NCBI GenBank assembly: GCA_009692705.1
Contig: SHYR01000001.1
Coordinates: 33,948 to 97,947, forward strand
Origin: Dehalococcoidia bacterium
Lineage (GTDB): Bacteria > Chloroflexota > Dehalococcoidia > UBA2979
DNA: 64,000 nucleotides
Direction of reading: 5' to 3'
Part shown: one piece after another, positions 5,577-36,506 of the stretch
Numbering within the stretch: the stretch's first letter is position 1
Layout of the letters: every line of letters begins with the position of its first letter
Program-made: the position numbers and the translations under genes
The notes under the pieces: model-generated
The model's database searches: none
What the model was told of the DNA's origin: nothing
Seen by the model: the letters and a program-made list of their open reading frames with translations, nothing else

Positions 5577-5654
5577 GGTGGGTGTCGCCTAGCGGTCAAA
5601 GGCGCCAGGTTGTGGCCCTGGAGAACGAGGGTTCAAATCCCTTCACCCACCCCA
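5577..5654 (+). tRNA. tRNA-His (anticodon GTG) with encoded G-1 and 3' CCA
   Basis: Manual fold: acceptor GTGGGTG/CACCCAC preceded by G-1 at 5577; D arm GCCT-AGCGGTCAA-AGGC; anticodon arm CCAGG-TTGTGGC-CCTGG with anticodon GTG; T arm GAGGG-TTCAAAT-CCCTT; discriminator C then CCA. G-1 paired to C73 is the hallmark of bacterial tRNA-His. Confidence 0.85.
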
Positions 5655-30143: not shown

Positions 30144-30975
30144 GCGCGTCCTCCAGCACTGCCGGCACCACGAGCGGGGCGCCGCTCCGCGGGTGGCGGA
30201 TCACCTCGACGCGGTCGCCGTAGGCGCGGCGCACGTGCTCCGCCGTCAGCACCGCCTCCGGCGCCCCCGCCACCACGATGCGGCCGCTGTGCAGGAGCGC
30301 GATGCGATCGCAGTATGCGGCCGCCAGCGTCAGATCGTGCACCACCACCAGCACGCCGGCGCCGTCCGCCGCCAGCTCCCGCAGGAGCGCGAAGATCTCG
30401 CCCTGCGCCTGCGGGTCGAGGTTCGCGGTCGGCTCATCGAGCAGCAGCAGCGCCGGTTCCTGCGCGAGCGCGCGCGCGACGAAGGCGCGGCGGCGCTCTC
30501 CGCCAGAGAGCGTGCCGAGCGCGCGTCCGGCGAAGCGGGCGCAGCCGGCGCGCCGCATCGCCTCCCCGGCGGCGGCGTAGTCGCGGGCGGACTCGCGGCC
30601 CAGCAGCCGCAGGTGGGGCGTGCGGCCGAGCAGCACGAGCTCCGCCACCGCCATTGTTGTGGGCGCTTCCGGTAGCTGCTGCACGACCGCGACCAGCCGC
30701 GCCAGCGCGCGCGGTGAGAGCGCGTGCAGCGGGCGGCCCGCCACCTCCACGCGCCCGCTGGCGAGCGGCACGCGCGCGGTGGCGGCGCGCAGCAGCGTGG
30801 TCTTGCCGGCGCCGTTCGGCCCGACGAGGCCGAGCAGCTCGCCGGCCCGCAGCGTGAGCGTCGCGCCGTCGAGCACGCGCTGGCCGTCGAGGTCGACGCA
30901 GACGTCCTCGGTCGCCAGCAGCGGCACGGTTGGCGCGACGGTGGTTGGCGCGGCGGTGGCCGGTGCGGCGGTCAT
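30136..30975 (-). CDS. btuD: ABC transporter ATP-binding protein, BtuD/FecE (iron-siderophore/cobalamin) type
   Basis: Walker A (GPNGAGKTTLL), signature (LSGGERRRAFVARAL) and Walker B (LLLLDEPTANLD). It lies within the B12 riboswitch operon. Confidence 0.85.
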   Translation of the reverse strand: MTAAPATAAPTTVAPTVPLLATEDVCVDLDGQRVLDGATLTLRAGELLGLVGPNGAGKTTLLRAATARVPLASGRVEVAGRPLHALSPRALARLVAVVQQLPEAPTTMAVAELVLLGRTPHLRLLGRESARDYAAAGEAMRRAGCARFAGRALGTLSGGERRRAFVARALAQEPALLLLDEPTANLDPQAQGEIFALLRELAADGAGVLVVVHDLTLAAAYCDRIALLHSGRIVVAGAPEAVLTAEHVRRAYGDRVEVIRHPRSGAPLVVPAVLEDARG

Positions 30976-32081
30976 CGCAGGCCGTCCACGCGGCGTGCGC
31001 GCAGCAGGTAGAGGAAGAAGGGCGCGCCCGTCAGCGCCGTGACGATGCCGACGGGCACCTCCTGCGGTGCGAGCAGCGAGCGCGACAGCACGTCCGCCAG
31101 CACGAGGAAGCTCGCTCCCAGCAGCGCGGTGAGCGGCAGCAGCCGCCGGTAGTCACCGCCGAACAGCATGCGCACGGCGTGCGGCACGATCAGCCCAACG
31201 AAGCCGATCACGCCGGCGATCGCGACCGCGGTCGCCGCCACCAGCGAGGCAGCGGCGAGCACGATCAACTTCGTGCGCGTGACGTCCACGCCGAGCTGTG
31301 CCGCCTGCTCCTCGTCGAGCTGGAGCACGTTGAGGATACGCCCGTGCGCGCCCACCACCAGCGCCCCCAGCACGACGTAGGGCGCGCCGATCAGCAACCG
31401 CTCCCAGCTCGCGGTGTTGAAGCTGCCGAACAGGAAGGCGAAGACGGGCTGCGCGCGCTGCCCACCGGTGAGCAGGATGAAGGAGGTGACCGAGCCGAAG
31501 ATGGCGGAGATCGCCACCCCGGCGAGGATCAGCGTGGCGTTCGAGACCGCCGCACCGGCGCGCGCCACCAGGTAGGCGCCGAGCACGGCGACGGCCGCGC
31601 CGCCGAACGCGCACAGCGGCACCCAGCCGAAGCCGTACGAGCCGGTCGGCAGCGGCAAGACGTGCGCGATCGCCGCGCCGAAGGCCGCCCCTGCCGCCAC
31701 ACCGAGCAGGTACGGCTCCGCCAGCGGGTTGCGGAATACGCCCTGGTACGCCGCCCCGGAGAAGGCCAGCCCCCCGCCCACCAGCGCGGCGGCGAGCACC
31801 CGCGGCAGCCGCACGTCGATCACGATGCGCTCCCAGGTGTCGGGAGCGGAGACGCCGAGGTGGACGAATGGCAGGCGTTGCACCAGCAACGCAAGCGCGG
31901 TGCCGGGCGGGATCGCGGCTGCGCCCTGGGTGAGGGCGAAGCCGAGCACCAGCACCAGCAGCGCGGCGGCGAGCGCGAGCGGCCCGAGCACGGCGAGGCG
32001 GCTACGGCGGTACGCGCCCGCGGCGATCTCGGGCGCGCGGACGCTGGGCTCGCTCCCCTGCACCTCTGCCACGTCTATCAC
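30972..32081 (-). CDS. btuC: FecCD-family ABC permease (BtuC-like)
   Basis: About 9 TM segments and FecCD signature blocks (RLPRVLAAALVGGGLAFSGAAYQGVFRNPLAEPYLLGV). Confidence 0.85.
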   Translation of the reverse strand: MIDVAEVQGSEPSVRAPEIAAGAYRRSRLAVLGPLALAAALLVLVLGFALTQGAAAIPPGTALALLVQRLPFVHLGVSAPDTWERIVIDVRLPRVLAAALVGGGLAFSGAAYQGVFRNPLAEPYLLGVAAGAAFGAAIAHVLPLPTGSYGFGWVPLCAFGGAAVAVLGAYLVARAGAAVSNATLILAGVAISAIFGSVTSFILLTGGQRAQPVFAFLFGSFNTASWERLLIGAPYVVLGALVVGAHGRILNVLQLDEEQAAQLGVDVTRTKLIVLAAASLVAATAVAIAGVIGFVGLIVPHAVRMLFGGDYRRLLPLTALLGASFLVLADVLSRSLLAPQEVPVGIVTALTGAPFFLYLLRARRVDGLR

Positions 32082-32095
32082 CGCGTTGCCTCCAG

Positions 32096-33088
32096 CTACT
32101 TGAAGCGGTCGGGGTAGAGCGCCCTCGCGAGCGCCTCGATGCCGTCGGCGATGCGCGGTCCCGGGCGGTCGACGATGTTGGTGTCGATCGCGTAGACGCG
32201 GCGGTTCTTGACCGCGGAGACGGCGGCCCAGCCGGGCCGCTTCGCGACGGTGTCGTAGCTCTCACCGAAGGCGGCGTCGCCGAGCATCACTACCTCCGGG
32301 TCGGCGGCGATCACGGCCTCCGCCGTGAGCTGCGGGAACGGCGAGGGTGCTCCCGCCGCGATGTTGCGCGCCTTGATCGCGATGAACATCCCGCCGATGA
32401 AGGTGTTGGGCGCGGCGGTGTAGAGGTCCTTCGTCACCTCGTAGAACACGCGCGGTCCCTGCGGCACGTCCGCCACGCCCTGTGTCACCGCCTCGATGCG
32501 AGTGCGCATCTGCGCCACCACCCGCTGCGCCTGCTCGCTGTTCCCGGTGACGCGGCCCAGCAGGATGATCTGCTCGTAGACGCCGTCGATCGAGGAGGCC
32601 TCCTGCTGGTAGAGCACGTTTAGCTTGAGGTCGCGGAACGGCTTCACCTGGTCACGCTGGCGGGTGGCGAACAGCACGAGGTCCGGTTGGTGCGCGAGCG
32701 CCGCCTCGGGGTTTGGGTCGCTGTATTCCAGCTTCGGCAGGCGCTTCGCCTGCTCGGGGTAGTCGGAGAACTTGTCGACCGCCACCACGCGCTCGCTGGC
32801 GCCGATCGCGAACAGGATCTCGGTCGCGCCCGGCGAGTACGAGATGATGCGCTGCGGCGGCGCTTGGATCGTGACGGCAGTATTTGAGGAGTCTGTGACG
32901 ATGAGCGGGAATGCGGGCGCGCTGGTCGTGGCCGCCACCGTGGGCGTGGAGGTCGCGGGCGCTGCCTCCTCGCCGCCGCCGCAAGCCACGGTGGCGAAGG
33001 CGAGCGCGAGCAGCAGCGCCGTCGGCGCGCGGCCGGGGCGGAACAGGGAGCGCAACGGGAAGCGGGACACGGTGAACCTCCGCACCAT
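32096..33088 (-). CDS. btuF: cobalamin/siderophore-type substrate-binding lipoprotein (BtuF-like, cluster A-2)
   Basis: Start set at ATG 33088 (MVRRFTVSRFPLRSLFRPGRAPTALLLALAFATVACGGG lipobox). The longer track ORF (to 33196) would run into the riboswitch. It has a periplasmic binding protein fold (RIISYSPGATEIL...PDLVLF). Confidence 0.8.
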   Translation of the reverse strand: MVRRFTVSRFPLRSLFRPGRAPTALLLALAFATVACGGGEEAAPATSTPTVAATTSAPAFPLIVTDSSNTAVTIQAPPQRIISYSPGATEILFAIGASERVVAVDKFSDYPEQAKRLPKLEYSDPNPEAALAHQPDLVLFATRQRDQVKPFRDLKLNVLYQQEASSIDGVYEQIILLGRVTGNSEQAQRVVAQMRTRIEAVTQGVADVPQGPRVFYEVTKDLYTAAPNTFIGGMFIAIKARNIAAGAPSPFPQLTAEAVIAADPEVVMLGDAAFGESYDTVAKRPGWAAVSAVKNRRVYAIDTNIVDRPGPRIADGIEALARALYPDRFK

Positions 33089-33199
33089 GGTGCGAGGAGG
33101 CGACGCGCGCGGCCGCCAGCACAAACAACCCATCGCCGAGGCGAGGGGCTCGTGCGGAAGCGGCTGGGTGGAGGGACGCGCTTGCGTCCCAGCCACGTG

Positions 33200-33360
33200 C
33201 CGTCCCCGATCCTCGCGGGGCTCTGACAGCTGGCGTAGGCCGGTAGCCTGGCTCGTCGCGGCGGCGTCCCGAGGGGGAGGCCGCGCGGCTTACAGTTGCG
33301 GGTCAGCGCCGGAGTTGCACCGGACTTCCCCAGTCTCTACGCCGAGACGCGTTGGACGCT
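33200..33360 (-). ncRNA. cobalamin (AdoCbl) riboswitch in the 5' leader of btuF-btuC-btuD-cobO-cobT-cobS-cobQ-cobU
   Basis: Minus-strand reading gives GGGGAAGTCCGGTGCAACTCCGGCGCTGACCCGCAACTGTAAGCCGCG...GACGAGCCAGGCTACCGGCC. This matches the conserved core (GGAAGCCGGTGAAAATCCGGCGC.G.CCCGCAACTGTAA) and the B12-box (AGCCAGGATACCTGCC) of RF00174. It sits about 110 nt upstream of the btuF start. Confidence 0.8.
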
Positions 33361-33462: not shown

Positions 33463-33490
33463 TTGACAAACGCGGCGCGGTGACTATGCT
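33463..33490 (+). promoter_or_regulatory. strong sigma-70-like promoter TTGACA-N16-TATGCT
   Basis: Consensus -35 TTGACA at 33463..33468, a 16-nt spacer, then TATGCT at 33485..33490. It faces away from the cob operon and towards the small zinc-ribbon ORF. Confidence 0.55.
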
Positions 33491-33713
33491 CTTGTTGTCA
33501 CAATCACGAATTAGACGCGATTGTGATGGGACGCAGCCGCGTCTTGCCGAATTCCCGCTCAGGTGGGGACCGGGGGAACCAACACTTTGGGTGAACCCTC
33601 CTCGCAGGGCGGGCCACTCTGTTCGGCCCGAACGAGTCAGCTAACCCAGGAGGCAATGGGAGCAGGCCCGGCCGGATGGCTACCGGCTTGGATCGTTCCC
33701 GGGAGAGACTGCT
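33491..33713 (+). other. ~220-nt low-GC structured leader / candidate small RNA between promoter and zinc-ribbon ORF
   Basis: Contains an 8-bp perfect hairpin TCACAATC-(13 nt)-GATTGTGA at 33498..33526, a GGGCC...GGCCC stem, and the near-palindrome GTTCGGCCCGAAC. GC is markedly lower than the surroundings. No known riboswitch or sRNA family is recognisable by eye. Confidence 0.35.
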
Positions 33714-33926
33714 GTGATCAATACCTCGCCGCCCCGTAACTGCCCGCGCTGCCAGGGCCTCGTGATCGTCGAAGACGACGCCTACGGCCAGTTTGGCACC
33801 TGCATCACCTGCGGCTACGTTCACGAGACGCAGCGCGCCGACCCGCGCGAGCTGGTGGAAGAGGAGCGCCTGGCCGCCGGCAAGCAGCGCCGCCGCCAGC
33901 CGTCGCACGGCAAGTTGCGCCTCTAG
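33714..33926 (+). CDS. small zinc-ribbon protein (CxxC-N17-CxxC), 70 aa
   Basis: GTG start with a GGGAGAGA RBS 9 nt upstream. Sequence MINTSPPRNCPRCQGLVIVEDDAYGQFGTCITCGYVHETQRADPRELVEEERLAAGKQRRRQPSHGKLRL has a basic C-terminal tail. It is followed by a perfect terminator. Confidence 0.45.
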   Translation: MINTSPPRNCPRCQGLVIVEDDAYGQFGTCITCGYVHETQRADPRELVEEERLAAGKQRRRQPSHGKLRL

Positions 33927-33952
33927 CCCGCGGTCGCGGTCGAGCACACCAT

Positions 33953-33982
33953 AAGGGCCCGCTCACGCGGGCCCTTATTCAT
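33953..33982 (+). terminator. rho-independent terminator (10-bp perfect stem AAGGGCCCGC-tcac-GCGGGCCCTT then ATTCAT)
   Basis: Perfect GC-rich hairpin 27 nt after the zinc-ribbon ORF stop, followed by a T-containing tail. Confidence 0.65.
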
Positions 33983-34251: not shown

Positions 34252-34512
34252 GTGGACGGGATCAAGGACGGGATCGAGATCGTGTCTGCTGACCTCCCGC
34301 GCTGCGTGCACCACTGGGTGCTGGCGGAGCCGGCGCGCTCCGATGGTCGACATGTTGGCCTCGGTCTCGCGACCGTGGCCGAGCTGGTGCAGGCGCACGG
34401 TGGAAGCGTGCAGGCGCGCTCCTCGCCGGAGACGGGGACGGTGATCACGGTGCGGCTGCTGCGCGCCGGGCCGGAGGGCTACGCTGTGGAGGCTGGGCAG
34501 ACGAGGAAGTAA
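34252..34512 (+). pseudogene. histidine-kinase C-terminal (HATPase_c) fragment, remnant
   Basis: The 86-aa ORF carries only the G2-box region of a sensor kinase (GLGLATVAELVQAHGGSVQARSSPETGTVITVRLL). A TGA lies in-frame just upstream. No HisKA, G1 box or TM domains are present. Confidence 0.5.
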
Positions 34513-34525
34513 GGAGAGCAAGCGA

Positions 34526-35284
34526 ATGGAACCGTTCAGACGCAACGTGCTGCCGGTGGTGGTGGGGATCGCGGCGCTGCTGGTCGCGGTCGCCTCGGTG
34601 GTCTACCTGGTGGACTGCGTCCGCGGACGCGACGACGGGGACGGCGAGCGCGATCGGCGGGAGTCGTTGCGCCTCGACCCGCAGCTGCTGCAGCTGCTGC
34701 AGCTGTTCGCGCGCGCCCGCGCCGACGCCGCCGCAGGCGCGGCGGCCCCCGCTCCCGGCCCAGACGCGGCGCCCGCACGCGCTCCCGGCCTGTTGCTGGG
34801 CGTGAGCGTGGCCGAGCAGGACGGGAAGCTGGTGGTGCAGCGCGTGCTGCCGAACACGCCGGCGGTGAAGGCCGGGGTGAAGGAGGGCGACCAGATCGCC
34901 GCGGTCGCCGATCAGGCCGTGACCAGCTTCGATGCGCTGCGGCAGGCCGTCCAGCAGCAGCCGCCCGGCAAGCAGTACGACCTCGCGGTGGTGCGCGGCA
35001 GCAAGCGCCTGACGCTCAAGGTCGACCGGCCGCAGGCGGTGCGTGCGGTCCCCGGCGCGGGGCCGCTGCGGCGGGGACCCGGAGCCGGCGCGCAGCCTGG
35101 TCAGCAGCCTGGTCAGCAGCCTGGTCAGCAGCCTGGTCAGCAGCCGGACCAGCAACGGCCGCGCTTCATGCCGGGCGCGCCGAACGCCCCGCGCGGCGGC
35201 GTGATGCCTGCGCCCTCGCCCTCGGGCGGCAGCAGCGGCCAGACGCTGGCGCTGCTTGTGCAGCCGCTGGCGGCGGGCGCCTGA
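34526..35284 (+). CDS. membrane-anchored PDZ-domain protein with C-terminal (QPGQ)n repeat
   Basis: N-terminal TM (VLPVVVGIAALLVAVASVVYLV) and a PDZ domain (GLLLGVSVAEQDGKLVVQRVLPNTPAVKAGVKEGDQIAAVADQAV...YDLAVVRGSKRLTLKV), followed by QPGQQPGQQPGQQPGQQPDQQ. Confidence 0.7.
   Translation: MEPFRRNVLPVVVGIAALLVAVASVVYLVDCVRGRDDGDGERDRRESLRLDPQLLQLLQLFARARADAAAGAAAPAPGPDAAPARAPGLLLGVSVAEQDGKLVVQRVLPNTPAVKAGVKEGDQIAAVADQAVTSFDALRQAVQQQPPGKQYDLAVVRGSKRLTLKVDRPQAVRAVPGAGPLRRGPGAGAQPGQQPGQQPGQQPGQQPDQQRPRFMPGAPNAPRGGVMPAPSPSGGSSGQTLALLVQPLAAGA
35093..35152 (+). repeat. 12-bp tandem repeat (cagcctggtcag) x4-5, coding for QPGQ repeats
   Basis: cagcctggtcagcagcctggtcagcagcctggtcagcagcctggtcagcagccggaccag, read directly from the sequence. 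Confidence 0.8.
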
Positions 35285-35587
35285 GCGGGCAATGCCTGCG
35301 GTGGGCCGCATGAGCCTCCGTGACTACTACTGGTCGCGTGGCCTGTGGGACAGATCTCGTCCGAACCGTGATGAGCGAATCGTGTTCTACTACAGACGAT
35401 CGGGGAGCCTGAACGTGTCTTCGATGAGCAGAGGCAGTAGATGCCTCCGGTCGTCACGGGCAGTAATGGCGACTATCCCTATGACGAATGAAAACACGTA
35501 ATCGTAGTTACGTGGTTTGCCTACGGAGACGATAGTGGCACTCACCTTGGCACCAATTGTGCCAAGTACTGCCTCGTTCTAGGCTAT

Positions 35588-36152
35588 GTGGCTTCCCCCC
35601 GCCAATGGACACTCTTTAGGTGGGAGTGGCGTCGGGCCCTCGGAGGCGTCCGAGAGTTCCACGCTGTCGAGTTCTTTCAGCGAGATCGTTGGAGATCCGA
35701 AACCAGCCACTATTACGGCTGGAACGACAAGAAGGCGCGCGCCTTCCTCAATAGATTACTTGCGGCTGTTCATCGGAATCGGTTGTGGCTCATAGGTGGT
35801 GCTGTCGACGTGGCGGCCTTCTTCAGTTATTCGGTTCCTGATCGGCGTTATCTGACCGGCGCGGCACATATCACAACGACTCACTGGCACAACGACGCGC
35901 TAGGGGTGGAGCACCAAGCTCATCGAGCACCAGAGTTCACCCGGGCGCCCGTATTTCATCGTGTTGCCTGGGTTCTTCGCTGAGGAAATGTCGGCGGCAC
36001 CGAACACACGGATTCATTTGGTTCTGGATTCGCAAGGTGATGCCGCGGTCCGTGCTAAGGAATACTTCGACCAGTTTAAGAAGAACGCGCCTGGCGCAGA
36101 GAGACTTGAGTCGCTTACCTGTACGTCGTCGTTGGCCGAAGTCGCGCTATAA
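35588..36152 (+). pseudogene. degraded ORF(s) of unknown family inside a low-GC island (two overlapping frames plus a downstream in-frame continuation)
   Basis: 35588..35983 (131 aa, GTG start) and 35961..36152 (63 aa) overlap in different frames. The second continues after its stop as AADMYSYVWHAKLMGKEMTGD... GC is clearly below genome average. No confident homology is visible by eye (a DUF3800-like C-terminal S-x-L-x-L-AD motif is possible but unsupported). Confidence 0.3.
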
Positions 36153-36506
36153 GCCGCAGACATGTACTCCTACGTCTGGCATGCGAAGCTGATGGGCAAG
36201 GAGATGACTGGCGACCGCGCACGCGCGTACGCTGTGCTCTCTCAAAAGAAACCCCAGATCGTTGCATCCGGGAAACGCTAGCTCAACAAACTACTGGCAA
36301 CGCGTGACGATGGGCATCGTGTAGCGGTTGAATGAGCGATGTTGCAGTTATGACGACGCCTTGACCGTTTCCACTCACGCTCGCGTTCGTCGAGTTTCGA
36401 TTTCGGTACTGGCGATGATCTGCCGCATTGCGCGCTCCTCGTCTTTTTCGGCGTCCTCGCGCTGCCCCCGACTGTGGCAACACGACGCCGCTGCGGTGTG
36501 CCGGCG

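Follow-up and report, generated by a model that had tools for sequence, protein, structure and literature searches.

We describe here a compact gene unit in a 64,000-nucleotide stretch of DNA (hereafter, the window) from a Dehalococcoidia bacterium of the Chloroflexota (assembly GCA_009692705.1, contig SHYR01000001.1, positions 33,948 to 97,947 of the forward strand). Between window positions 33463 and 33982, a promoter, a long structured leader, a gene for a predicted zinc-ribbon protein of 70 residues and a terminator-like hairpin follow one another on the plus strand. Judged from its sequence, the leader carries a known RNA sensor, a c-di-AMP (cyclic diadenosine monophosphate) riboswitch of the ydaO class, for which binding of c-di-AMP is predicted. 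The RNA itself belongs to a known family; the fresh point is that its aptamer is found before the same uncharacterised 70-residue protein in at least 80 Chloroflexota species (80 of the 80 retrieved). The features of the unit are the following, with the basis of each in brackets.

33463..33468, plus strand: -35 box TTGACA (promoter scan)
33485..33490, plus strand: -10 box TATGCT (promoter scan), with a putative transcription start near 33496-33498
33497..33527, plus strand: 5'-terminal stem-loop GUCACAAUC...GAUUGUGAU (minimum free energy, MFE, fold)
33535..33670, plus strand: aptamer of the c-di-AMP riboswitch, RF00379, ydaO/yuaA (cmscan, Rfam)
33662..33669, plus strand: C-rich element GCAGGCCC, consensus CAG(G)CCC, a candidate sequestor of the Shine-Dalgarno (SD) sequence (conserved in A2, an alignment of the platform)
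33671..33687, plus strand: post-aptamer hairpin GCCGG-AUGGCUA-CCGGC, consensus CCGG-NGGGAUN-CCGG (covariation)
33701..33707, plus strand: SD sequence GGGAGAG, 6 nt before the start codon (read from the sequence)
33714..33926, plus strand: open reading frame (ORF) of the 70-residue zinc-ribbon protein, GTG start, TAG stop (ORF translation, homologues, codon entropy)
33951..33982, plus strand: terminator-like hairpin with a 12-bp perfect stem, a UCAC loop and a UUAUU-containing 3' side (fold, shuffles)

The leader (33491-33713) has a GC content of 62.3% against 72.3% across the window, a drop already remarked on in an earlier note on this DNA. Scanning with cmscan against Rfam 15 placed in it a match to RF00379 that scores 56.5 bits (gathering score, 38 bits), covers the whole model (positions 1-134 of 134) and has an E value of 2.7e-12 in a local search. 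The P1 helix is formed by UGCC at 33545-33548 and GGCA at 33652-33655, and the start codon lies 58 nt past the end of the P1 3' strand and 43 nt past the end of the Rfam match. The earlier note had suspected a cis-regulatory RNA in so long a leader, and the full-length match bears this out; its statement that the leader fits no known family does not hold, as cmscan gives RF00379 over the gathering score and the relatives that were scanned score higher still. Because the match is full-length and above gathering, it explains the RNA, the very outcome that the note had named as telling against a new element.

Relatives were collected in a back-translated scan that took a single genome for each GTDB species and returned 420 species genomes with relatives. 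The best 80 of these gave the species loci L001-L080, all from metagenome-assembled genomes of Dehalococcoidia/Chloroflexota, and L081-L089 are the loci of more distant homologues, making 89 loci of about 8 kb each. RF00379 was found directly upstream of the ORF, at 70-93 bits, in 18 of the 18 relatives' loci scanned with Rfam, and also at L081, L085, L086, and L089 (four loci, representing three homologues with 52-54% identity). A clade-specific covariance model, built on 22 riboswitch copies from homologous loci, scored the window aptamer at 109 bits and found exactly one copy, placed directly before the ORF, in the window and likewise in each of L001-L080, as well as one copy in the same position in L081-83, L085, L086, and L089. 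L084 has no informative upstream region, the DNA being cut off there. In the alignment of all 87 copies (84 distinct sequences), which was fitted to the model and is therefore biased towards structure, 97.4% of the pair cells in the aptamer helices are standard pairs versus 38-60% with the partners slid, and compensatory double changes occur in 15 of 29 pairs, a value as high as which was reached in none of 500 shuffles.

Known c-di-AMP riboswitches bind their ligand with picomolar affinity and usually precede genes for K+ and amino acid transporters, cell wall remodelling or the response to osmotic shock (PMC7266159); reviews give the same associated functions (PMC7266159, PMC5575661, PMC7288161). 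The window copy resembles them in its full-length model match, in having the same helices and the cores GAAU, ACCGGGGGAACC, GGGGUGAA, and CCCGAACCCGUCAGCUAACC, and in lying in the 5' untranslated region (UTR) on the same strand as the gene it would regulate. It differs in that this gene codes for a 70-residue zinc ribbon and for no K+/osmolyte transporter or cell wall enzyme, in that an intrinsic terminator platform is replaced by a clade-specific module (C-rich element, covarying hairpin, and G-rich SD), and in three mismatches in the aptamer core. As a whole, the locus is very probably a monocistronic gene with a 217-nt leader that carries a c-di-AMP riboswitch; the self-contained unit proposed in the earlier note is thus upheld, and the same architecture recurs in the relatives.

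The unit opens with hexamers separated by a 16-nt spacer that agree with the sigma-70 consensus at 10 of 12 positions. No other sigma-70-like site was found between 30 and 38 kb, and when matches to at least 10 of the 12 consensus positions were sought on both strands of the entire window, TTGACA-N16-TATGCT was the only one; the earlier note had ranked it as the best promoter match. Among 79 full-length homologous leaders, 76 have TTGAC[AG]-N16-TAYNNT, with a spacer of 16 nt in each. With its hexamers, its spacing and its conserved orthologous position, the site is, as far as sequence can tell, a sigma-70-type promoter. The 19-mer TATGCTCTTGTNGTCACAA, which covers the -10 box along with the earliest transcribed bases, occurs exactly and once each in 43 of the 89 loci, at the same site and nowhere else there. 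At window 33485-33509, its conservation goes well beyond what a promoter or a stabiliser hairpin would need.

The 8-bp hairpin TCACAATC...GATTGTGA that had been seen by eye in the leader does form in the predicted fold and extends to 33497-33527. The first 42 nt of the window leader fold with z = -2.25; over the first 42 transcribed nucleotides of 73 distinct leaders the mean is z = -2.48, with z < -1.5 in 79% of them. In L052 and L073 both arms are altered together, and across leaders the loop measures anywhere between 5 and 20 nt; because the arms change together and the loop length varies in this way, an RNA hairpin is favoured over a protein operator of fixed spacing. The inverted repeat at the transcript start was also considered as the operator of a dimeric repressor, which is less likely given an arm spacing of 5-20 nt and the absence of the motif elsewhere in the window and in the 8-kb loci. 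Stem-loops at the very 5' end are known to stabilise bacterial mRNAs, the Escherichia coli ompA leader being an example. Like these stabilisers, the hairpin of the window unit starts about 1-2 nt from the putative 5' end and keeps its structure while its loop length varies. Unlike them, its 5' arm GUCACAAUCAC is strongly conserved in sequence, which a simple stabiliser would not need; this arm is fixed, and the 3' arm shifts register. The hairpin is probably an mRNA stabiliser that shields the transcript from 5'-end-dependent decay, and one of the UCACAA type is retained in L087, from a lineage without the riboswitch.

At the other end of the unit, the stem past the stop codon has its arms at 33951-62 and 33967-78, an energy of -33.3 kcal/mol and z = -3.95, with no equal among 200 shuffles. 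The earlier note had described a perfect 10-bp GC hairpin terminator. The strong hairpin is real, and its perfect stem is in fact 12 bp long, but the U-tract is only partial, UUAUU overlapping the base of the stem; if the G/C core GGGCCCGC alone is counted as stem, UUAUUCAU comes next. In 81 of 85 distinct loci the stop codon has a simple hairpin of at most -12 kcal/mol behind it, and energies there average -25.3 kcal/mol, where 90-nt windows drawn at random from these loci average -15.3 kcal/mol (Mann-Whitney p = 2e-12). Among the relatives the stem sequences vary and most stems have no U-tail (on average 1.6 U per 8 nt), and the consensus terminator scan of 30-38 kb did not call the post-stop hairpin of the window.

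The terminator scan of the window found no terminator between the aptamer and the ORF, and control is therefore probably exerted at translation initiation. As an intrinsic terminator, the post-aptamer hairpin was rejected, the relatives having no U-tract after it. The hairpin itself is well supported across the clade, with 83% of cells paired versus 12-48% with the partners slid, 22 double-change cells, and no shuffle out of 500 reaching this level. Downstream of it, the relatives have AGGAGG or AGGGG in the place of the window SD; this gene family has SD regions that are unusually rich in G (GGAGGGC, AGGGGU, GAGGUGGCC). Complementarity exists between the C-rich element and the SD/start region, through CCCGG/CCGGG and GCAG/CUGC in the window, and duplexes between the element and the ribosome-binding site (RBS) are more stable for cognate than for non-cognate combinations (-7.79 versus -7.20 kcal/mol; permutation p = 0.0012). 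In L022-L030 the 3' strand of P1 together with two further bases reads GGCUGA and thereby matches UCAGCC of the C-rich element as its exact complement, an arrangement that, on sequence grounds, has the layout of a classical OFF switch.

Platforms that sequester the SD and act on translation are found in many Gram-negative and high-GC leaders of the thiamine pyrophosphate (TPP), cobalamin, and SAM-II classes. The window unit shares with translational riboswitches of this kind an aptamer 30-45 nt from the SD, the lack of a terminator, and a conserved pyrimidine-rich segment complementary to the SD/start; it departs from them in that its alternative pairings are ambiguous and the covariation behind them is weak. 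On balance, we lean towards control of translation initiation through occlusion of the RBS, with some reserve. RNA polymerase would start a few bases past the near-consensus sigma-70 promoter, and the first 31 nt of the transcript would fold as the 5'-terminal hairpin, presumably protecting the mRNA from decay that begins at its 5' end. A refolding of P1 and its 3' flank that depends on the ligand would then set whether the C-rich element blocks the RBS. In the OFF layout, P1 with ligand bound would keep the GGCUGA strand to itself, and the freed sequestor would shut the RBS, so that high c-di-AMP would turn expression off; the strong hairpin past the stop codon would terminate the unit. That the switch is OFF at high c-di-AMP is assumed from the precedent of the Bacillus leader; the Bacillus representative of RF00379 is an OFF switch that works through a terminator (PMC5575661).

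Some results count against this picture of the platform. The difference between cognate and non-cognate duplexes is small (0.6 kcal/mol), and the sequences compared are phylogenetically related. Partition-function folding of the leaders, free and with P1 constrained, gave no consistent direction of switching, in a test that is biased by its construction. An outer helix around the post-aptamer hairpin can be seen by eye (CUGGA/UCCAG; in the window, GGGA/UCCC), but the cognate/non-cognate test, in the segmentation used, gave no significant covariation for it (p = 0.68); an alternative CCC/GGG hairpin is compatible with the sequences and shows no covariation. RNAalifold, run on a MAFFT alignment of the platform, recovered only 3 bp, and in the MFE fold of the window the aptamer 5' flank at 33530-33548 pairs with 33701-33719, in competition with the C-rich element.

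This last pairing is one of the reasons to consider, as a possible if tentative alternative, an ON switch, in which the aptamer's invariant 3' core, CAGCUAACCYC, or else its 5' flank would pair with the SD/start when no ligand is bound, and the ligand would free the RBS so that the protein is made at high c-di-AMP. When the 3' half of the leader is folded alone, CAGCUAACCYC does pair with the SD/start in several lineages (over 11 bp in L063, and likewise in L023 and L053), and enforcing P1 makes the SD more accessible in 17 of 76 leaders, with the reverse in none. However, the constraint on P1 strips the SD of pairing partners, so that accessibility can only rise, and an aptamer strand that contains CCUC would pair with any SD. 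The aptamer core has no cognate advantage against the RBS (-12.65 versus -13.22 kcal/mol, from a flawed segmentation of 17 sequences), and the characterised representatives cited are OFF switches (PMC5575661).

Action at the level of the transcript, by Rho-dependent termination or by altered mRNA decay in the leader or the short ORF, seems unlikely. A leader without an intrinsic terminator would suit it, the C-rich CAG(G)CCC might add to a rut-like site, and the conserved 5' hairpin hints at control of RNA stability; on the other hand, the C-rich tract measures only some 8 nt, and its complementarity to the SD is explained more simply by occlusion of translation. Such action is also compatible with translational control, and both may operate.

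Returning to the assignment of the RNA as a c-di-AMP sensor, a number of observations speak against it or weaken it in this genome. The gene behind the window riboswitch, a zinc-ribbon protein, falls outside the usual classes of the c-di-AMP regulon; this leaves the membership of the RNA intact, because gene association is typical of RF00379 and not defining. In the lineage of L087 and L088, neither the clade model nor Rfam found RF00379, and no Rfam match of any kind appeared at E <= 1. The upstream region of the homologue there (protein P0046, 55% identical; L087 2551-3001, also L088) is 450 nt long and has a TTGACA promoter and a UCACAA-type hairpin but no riboswitch. Moreover, the window aptamer is the most deviant of the 87 copies, with the lowest Rfam score examined (56.5 bits versus 70-93), and it alone among them is mismatched at three otherwise near-invariant core pairs, which 83 of the 84 distinct sequences keep paired. 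These are the alignment pairs 84/226, 104/213, and 105/212, and the mismatches are a G.A in the 5-bp CGGGG/CCYCG helix and a G.A and a G.G in the GGGU/ACCC helix. The window reads UUUGGGUGAA, GAACGAGUCAGC, and AACCCAGG where its relatives read NNGGGGUGAA, GAACCCGNCAGC, and AACCYCGG, and it has four substitutions at sites that are at least 90% conserved in the relatives. P1 and the remaining core motifs (GAAU, ACCGGGGGAACC, GGGUGAA, CCCGAAC, CAGCUAACC) are intact.

Because three core pairs are broken, binding of c-di-AMP may be weakened in this genome. The non-pairs unique among 87 copies, the changes at conserved sites and the lowest Rfam score seen among the copies would all fit an aptamer in decay, which has lost its ligand binding or much of it and leaves the leader as a constitutive structured 5' UTR. 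We regard this as improbable: the score is still 18 bits over the gathering threshold with the whole model covered, P1 and the other core motifs are preserved, promoter, platform, ORF, and terminator-like hairpin are all intact, and the mismatches might be assembly errors.

The protein behind the riboswitch has the cysteine pattern C10-x2-C13-x16-C30-x2-C33, followed by a short helix and then by the tail RQRRRQPSHGKLRL. The GTG-initiated mini-protein of the earlier note is confirmed as an ORF of 70 codons, with the slight correction that the spacer between the two CxxC knuckles is 16 residues and not the 17 given, a trivial miscount. The conservation of the ORF, which that note had proposed to check, is extensive: beside the relatives in the 420 species genomes, there are 53 homologues down to 52% identity, all unnamed, the few with a taxon label being Chloroflexi. 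In A1, a protein alignment of the family, C30 and C33 are invariant, C10 is present in at least 90% of the full-length sequences, and C13 is kept in all full-length sequences but two (P0028 and P0104, where it is substituted). The basic tail, which makes up the last 14 residues, is almost invariant, with Q58 and R61 at 90% or more and the others identical in 32 of 32 sequences. Over 80 distinct orthologous ORFs, the entropy at the three codon positions is 0.28/0.18/1.00 bits, and 0.03/0.00/0.89 bits in the tail; with this three-base periodicity, it is a protein, as opposed to an RNA element, that is under strong purifying selection.

The same pattern bears on the dual-function small RNA (sRNA) entertained in the earlier note, which finds no support. 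That the unit is a novel cis-regulatory RNA or an sRNA that also encodes a peptide is hardly credible, for all that the leader is long beside so small an ORF and the sequence at the transcript start is unusually conserved, since RF00379 covers 136 of about 217 leader nucleotides, codon positions 1 and 2 of the tail are invariant with position 3 freely variable, and nothing was found that would point to a trans-acting target.

An AlphaFold2 (AF2) model of the protein has a mean confidence (pLDDT) of 73.5 overall and 81-88 over the ribbon, with strands at residues 16-22, 25-30, and 36-38 and a helix at 44-54, after which the tail follows. With two CxxC knuckles, conserved cysteines, and a three-stranded sheet, the modelled protein is a generic zinc ribbon, for which metal binding is predicted. 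The family searches fell short of any closer name: PF08271 (the TFIIB-type ribbon) matched at 24.3 bits, under the Pfam gathering threshold of 29; a profile search against the PDB hit TFIIB, 1pft, at E = 0.0075; Foldseek against the PDB returned the folds of RPC10, ZifS, and TFIIB, all at E >= 0.12; and searches of NCBIfam, PHROGs, and PADLOC gave generic or sub-threshold matches only. Because all family matches are sub-threshold, we use "zinc ribbon" in its generic sense only. With the ribbons of TFIIB, RPB9, and TFS (PF08271, PF02150) and with small bacterial zinc-finger proteins such as ZifS (TTHA0897, PDB 8yoz), the groups that gave its best matches in sequence and fold, the window protein shares four cysteines in two CxxC knuckles and the predicted three-stranded ribbon; it differs from them in its basic tail RQRRRQPSHGKLRL and in matching them only under the thresholds. 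Searched alone, the tail had no match in any PDB chain.

An exhaustive profile search extended the family to 1658 cluster representatives at E <= 1e-3. Among the proteins that it found outside the window are rare ones of 190-736 residues (P0065-P0156) with the ribbon and an RRRQPSHGKxxL tail at their C terminus, ahead of which these long relatives have one to four repeats of the form NPWxL..E.T.L.LR....S..E.A, with a weak likeness to the helix-turn-helix motifs of sigma-70 region 4. Two of them have sub-threshold matches to sigma-70 region 4 (E 0.01-0.07), and a search with the long relative P0084 was uninformative. The sigma-like repeats are a faint hint towards the transcription machinery and nothing beyond.

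The invariance of the tail implies a very conserved partner and suggests docking onto it; as a speculation, this partner could belong to the machinery of transcription or translation. The riboswitch, for its part, would place the zinc-ribbon protein in the c-di-AMP regulon. Taken together, the mini-protein might be a c-di-AMP effector of Chloroflexota, its tail docking on RNA polymerase or the ribosome and the riboswitch setting its level, a proposal that we put forward as doubtful. If true, the mini-protein would turn the level of a second messenger into a global change of transcription or translation.

As one more c-di-AMP riboswitch from a routine Rfam scan, the RNA alone matters little. 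A riboswitch is, however, a reliable pointer to the physiology of its gene. In a phylum where genetics hardly exists, this one connects an unnamed small protein of wide occurrence with c-di-AMP signalling, the system in charge of osmotic, K+, and cell envelope homeostasis. The tail of 14 residues, being so strictly conserved, offers a clear experimental handle. The unit is also a compact and fully delimited c-di-AMP riboswitch that probably acts on translation and could help to define platforms that do without a terminator. In the literature we found no paper that joins a c-di-AMP riboswitch with a zinc ribbon, and for ZifS only unrelated material came up; the primary gene tables, which may list such a gene as "hypothetical protein", lay outside this search.

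In some of the more distant loci, the zinc-ribbon gene is followed, after some 170-210 nt, by a conserved ORF of 82-91 residues (L081 4379-4654, L085 3235-3483, L086 2199-2450); it has no Pfam match, and no counterpart was seen in the window. On the other side, the unit is divergent from a vitamin B12 (cobalamin) riboswitch operon, as the earlier note had stated:

33357..33239, minus strand: cobalamin riboswitch RF00174, 44.2 bits (cmscan)

Behind this riboswitch follow a BtuF-like binding protein (32096-33196, minus strand) and a FecCD permease (30972-32081, minus strand). The back-to-back pair of cobalamin and c-di-AMP riboswitches is also found in L010 and L042.

Downstream on the plus strand, an 86-residue ORF at 34252-34512 holds only the C-terminal half of HATPase_c (profile positions 45-108 of 111) and has the look of a histidine kinase remnant or of a gene whose start was mis-called. 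The product of the next gene (34526-35284, plus strand) has a PDZ domain and a tail of low complexity, (QQPG)n; the antisense ORF on this DNA reads (LLTR)n. Beyond it lies an island of about 1.1 kb (35320-36400) with 52-60% GC in a window of 72% GC, which holds four of the six terminator-like matches of 30-38 kb; Pfam matched none of its ORFs (35588-35983 is one of them), and the island may be a foreign insertion. The only further Rfam match in the window is a tRNA gene (RF00005, 63.5 bits) at 5578-5651 on the plus strand.

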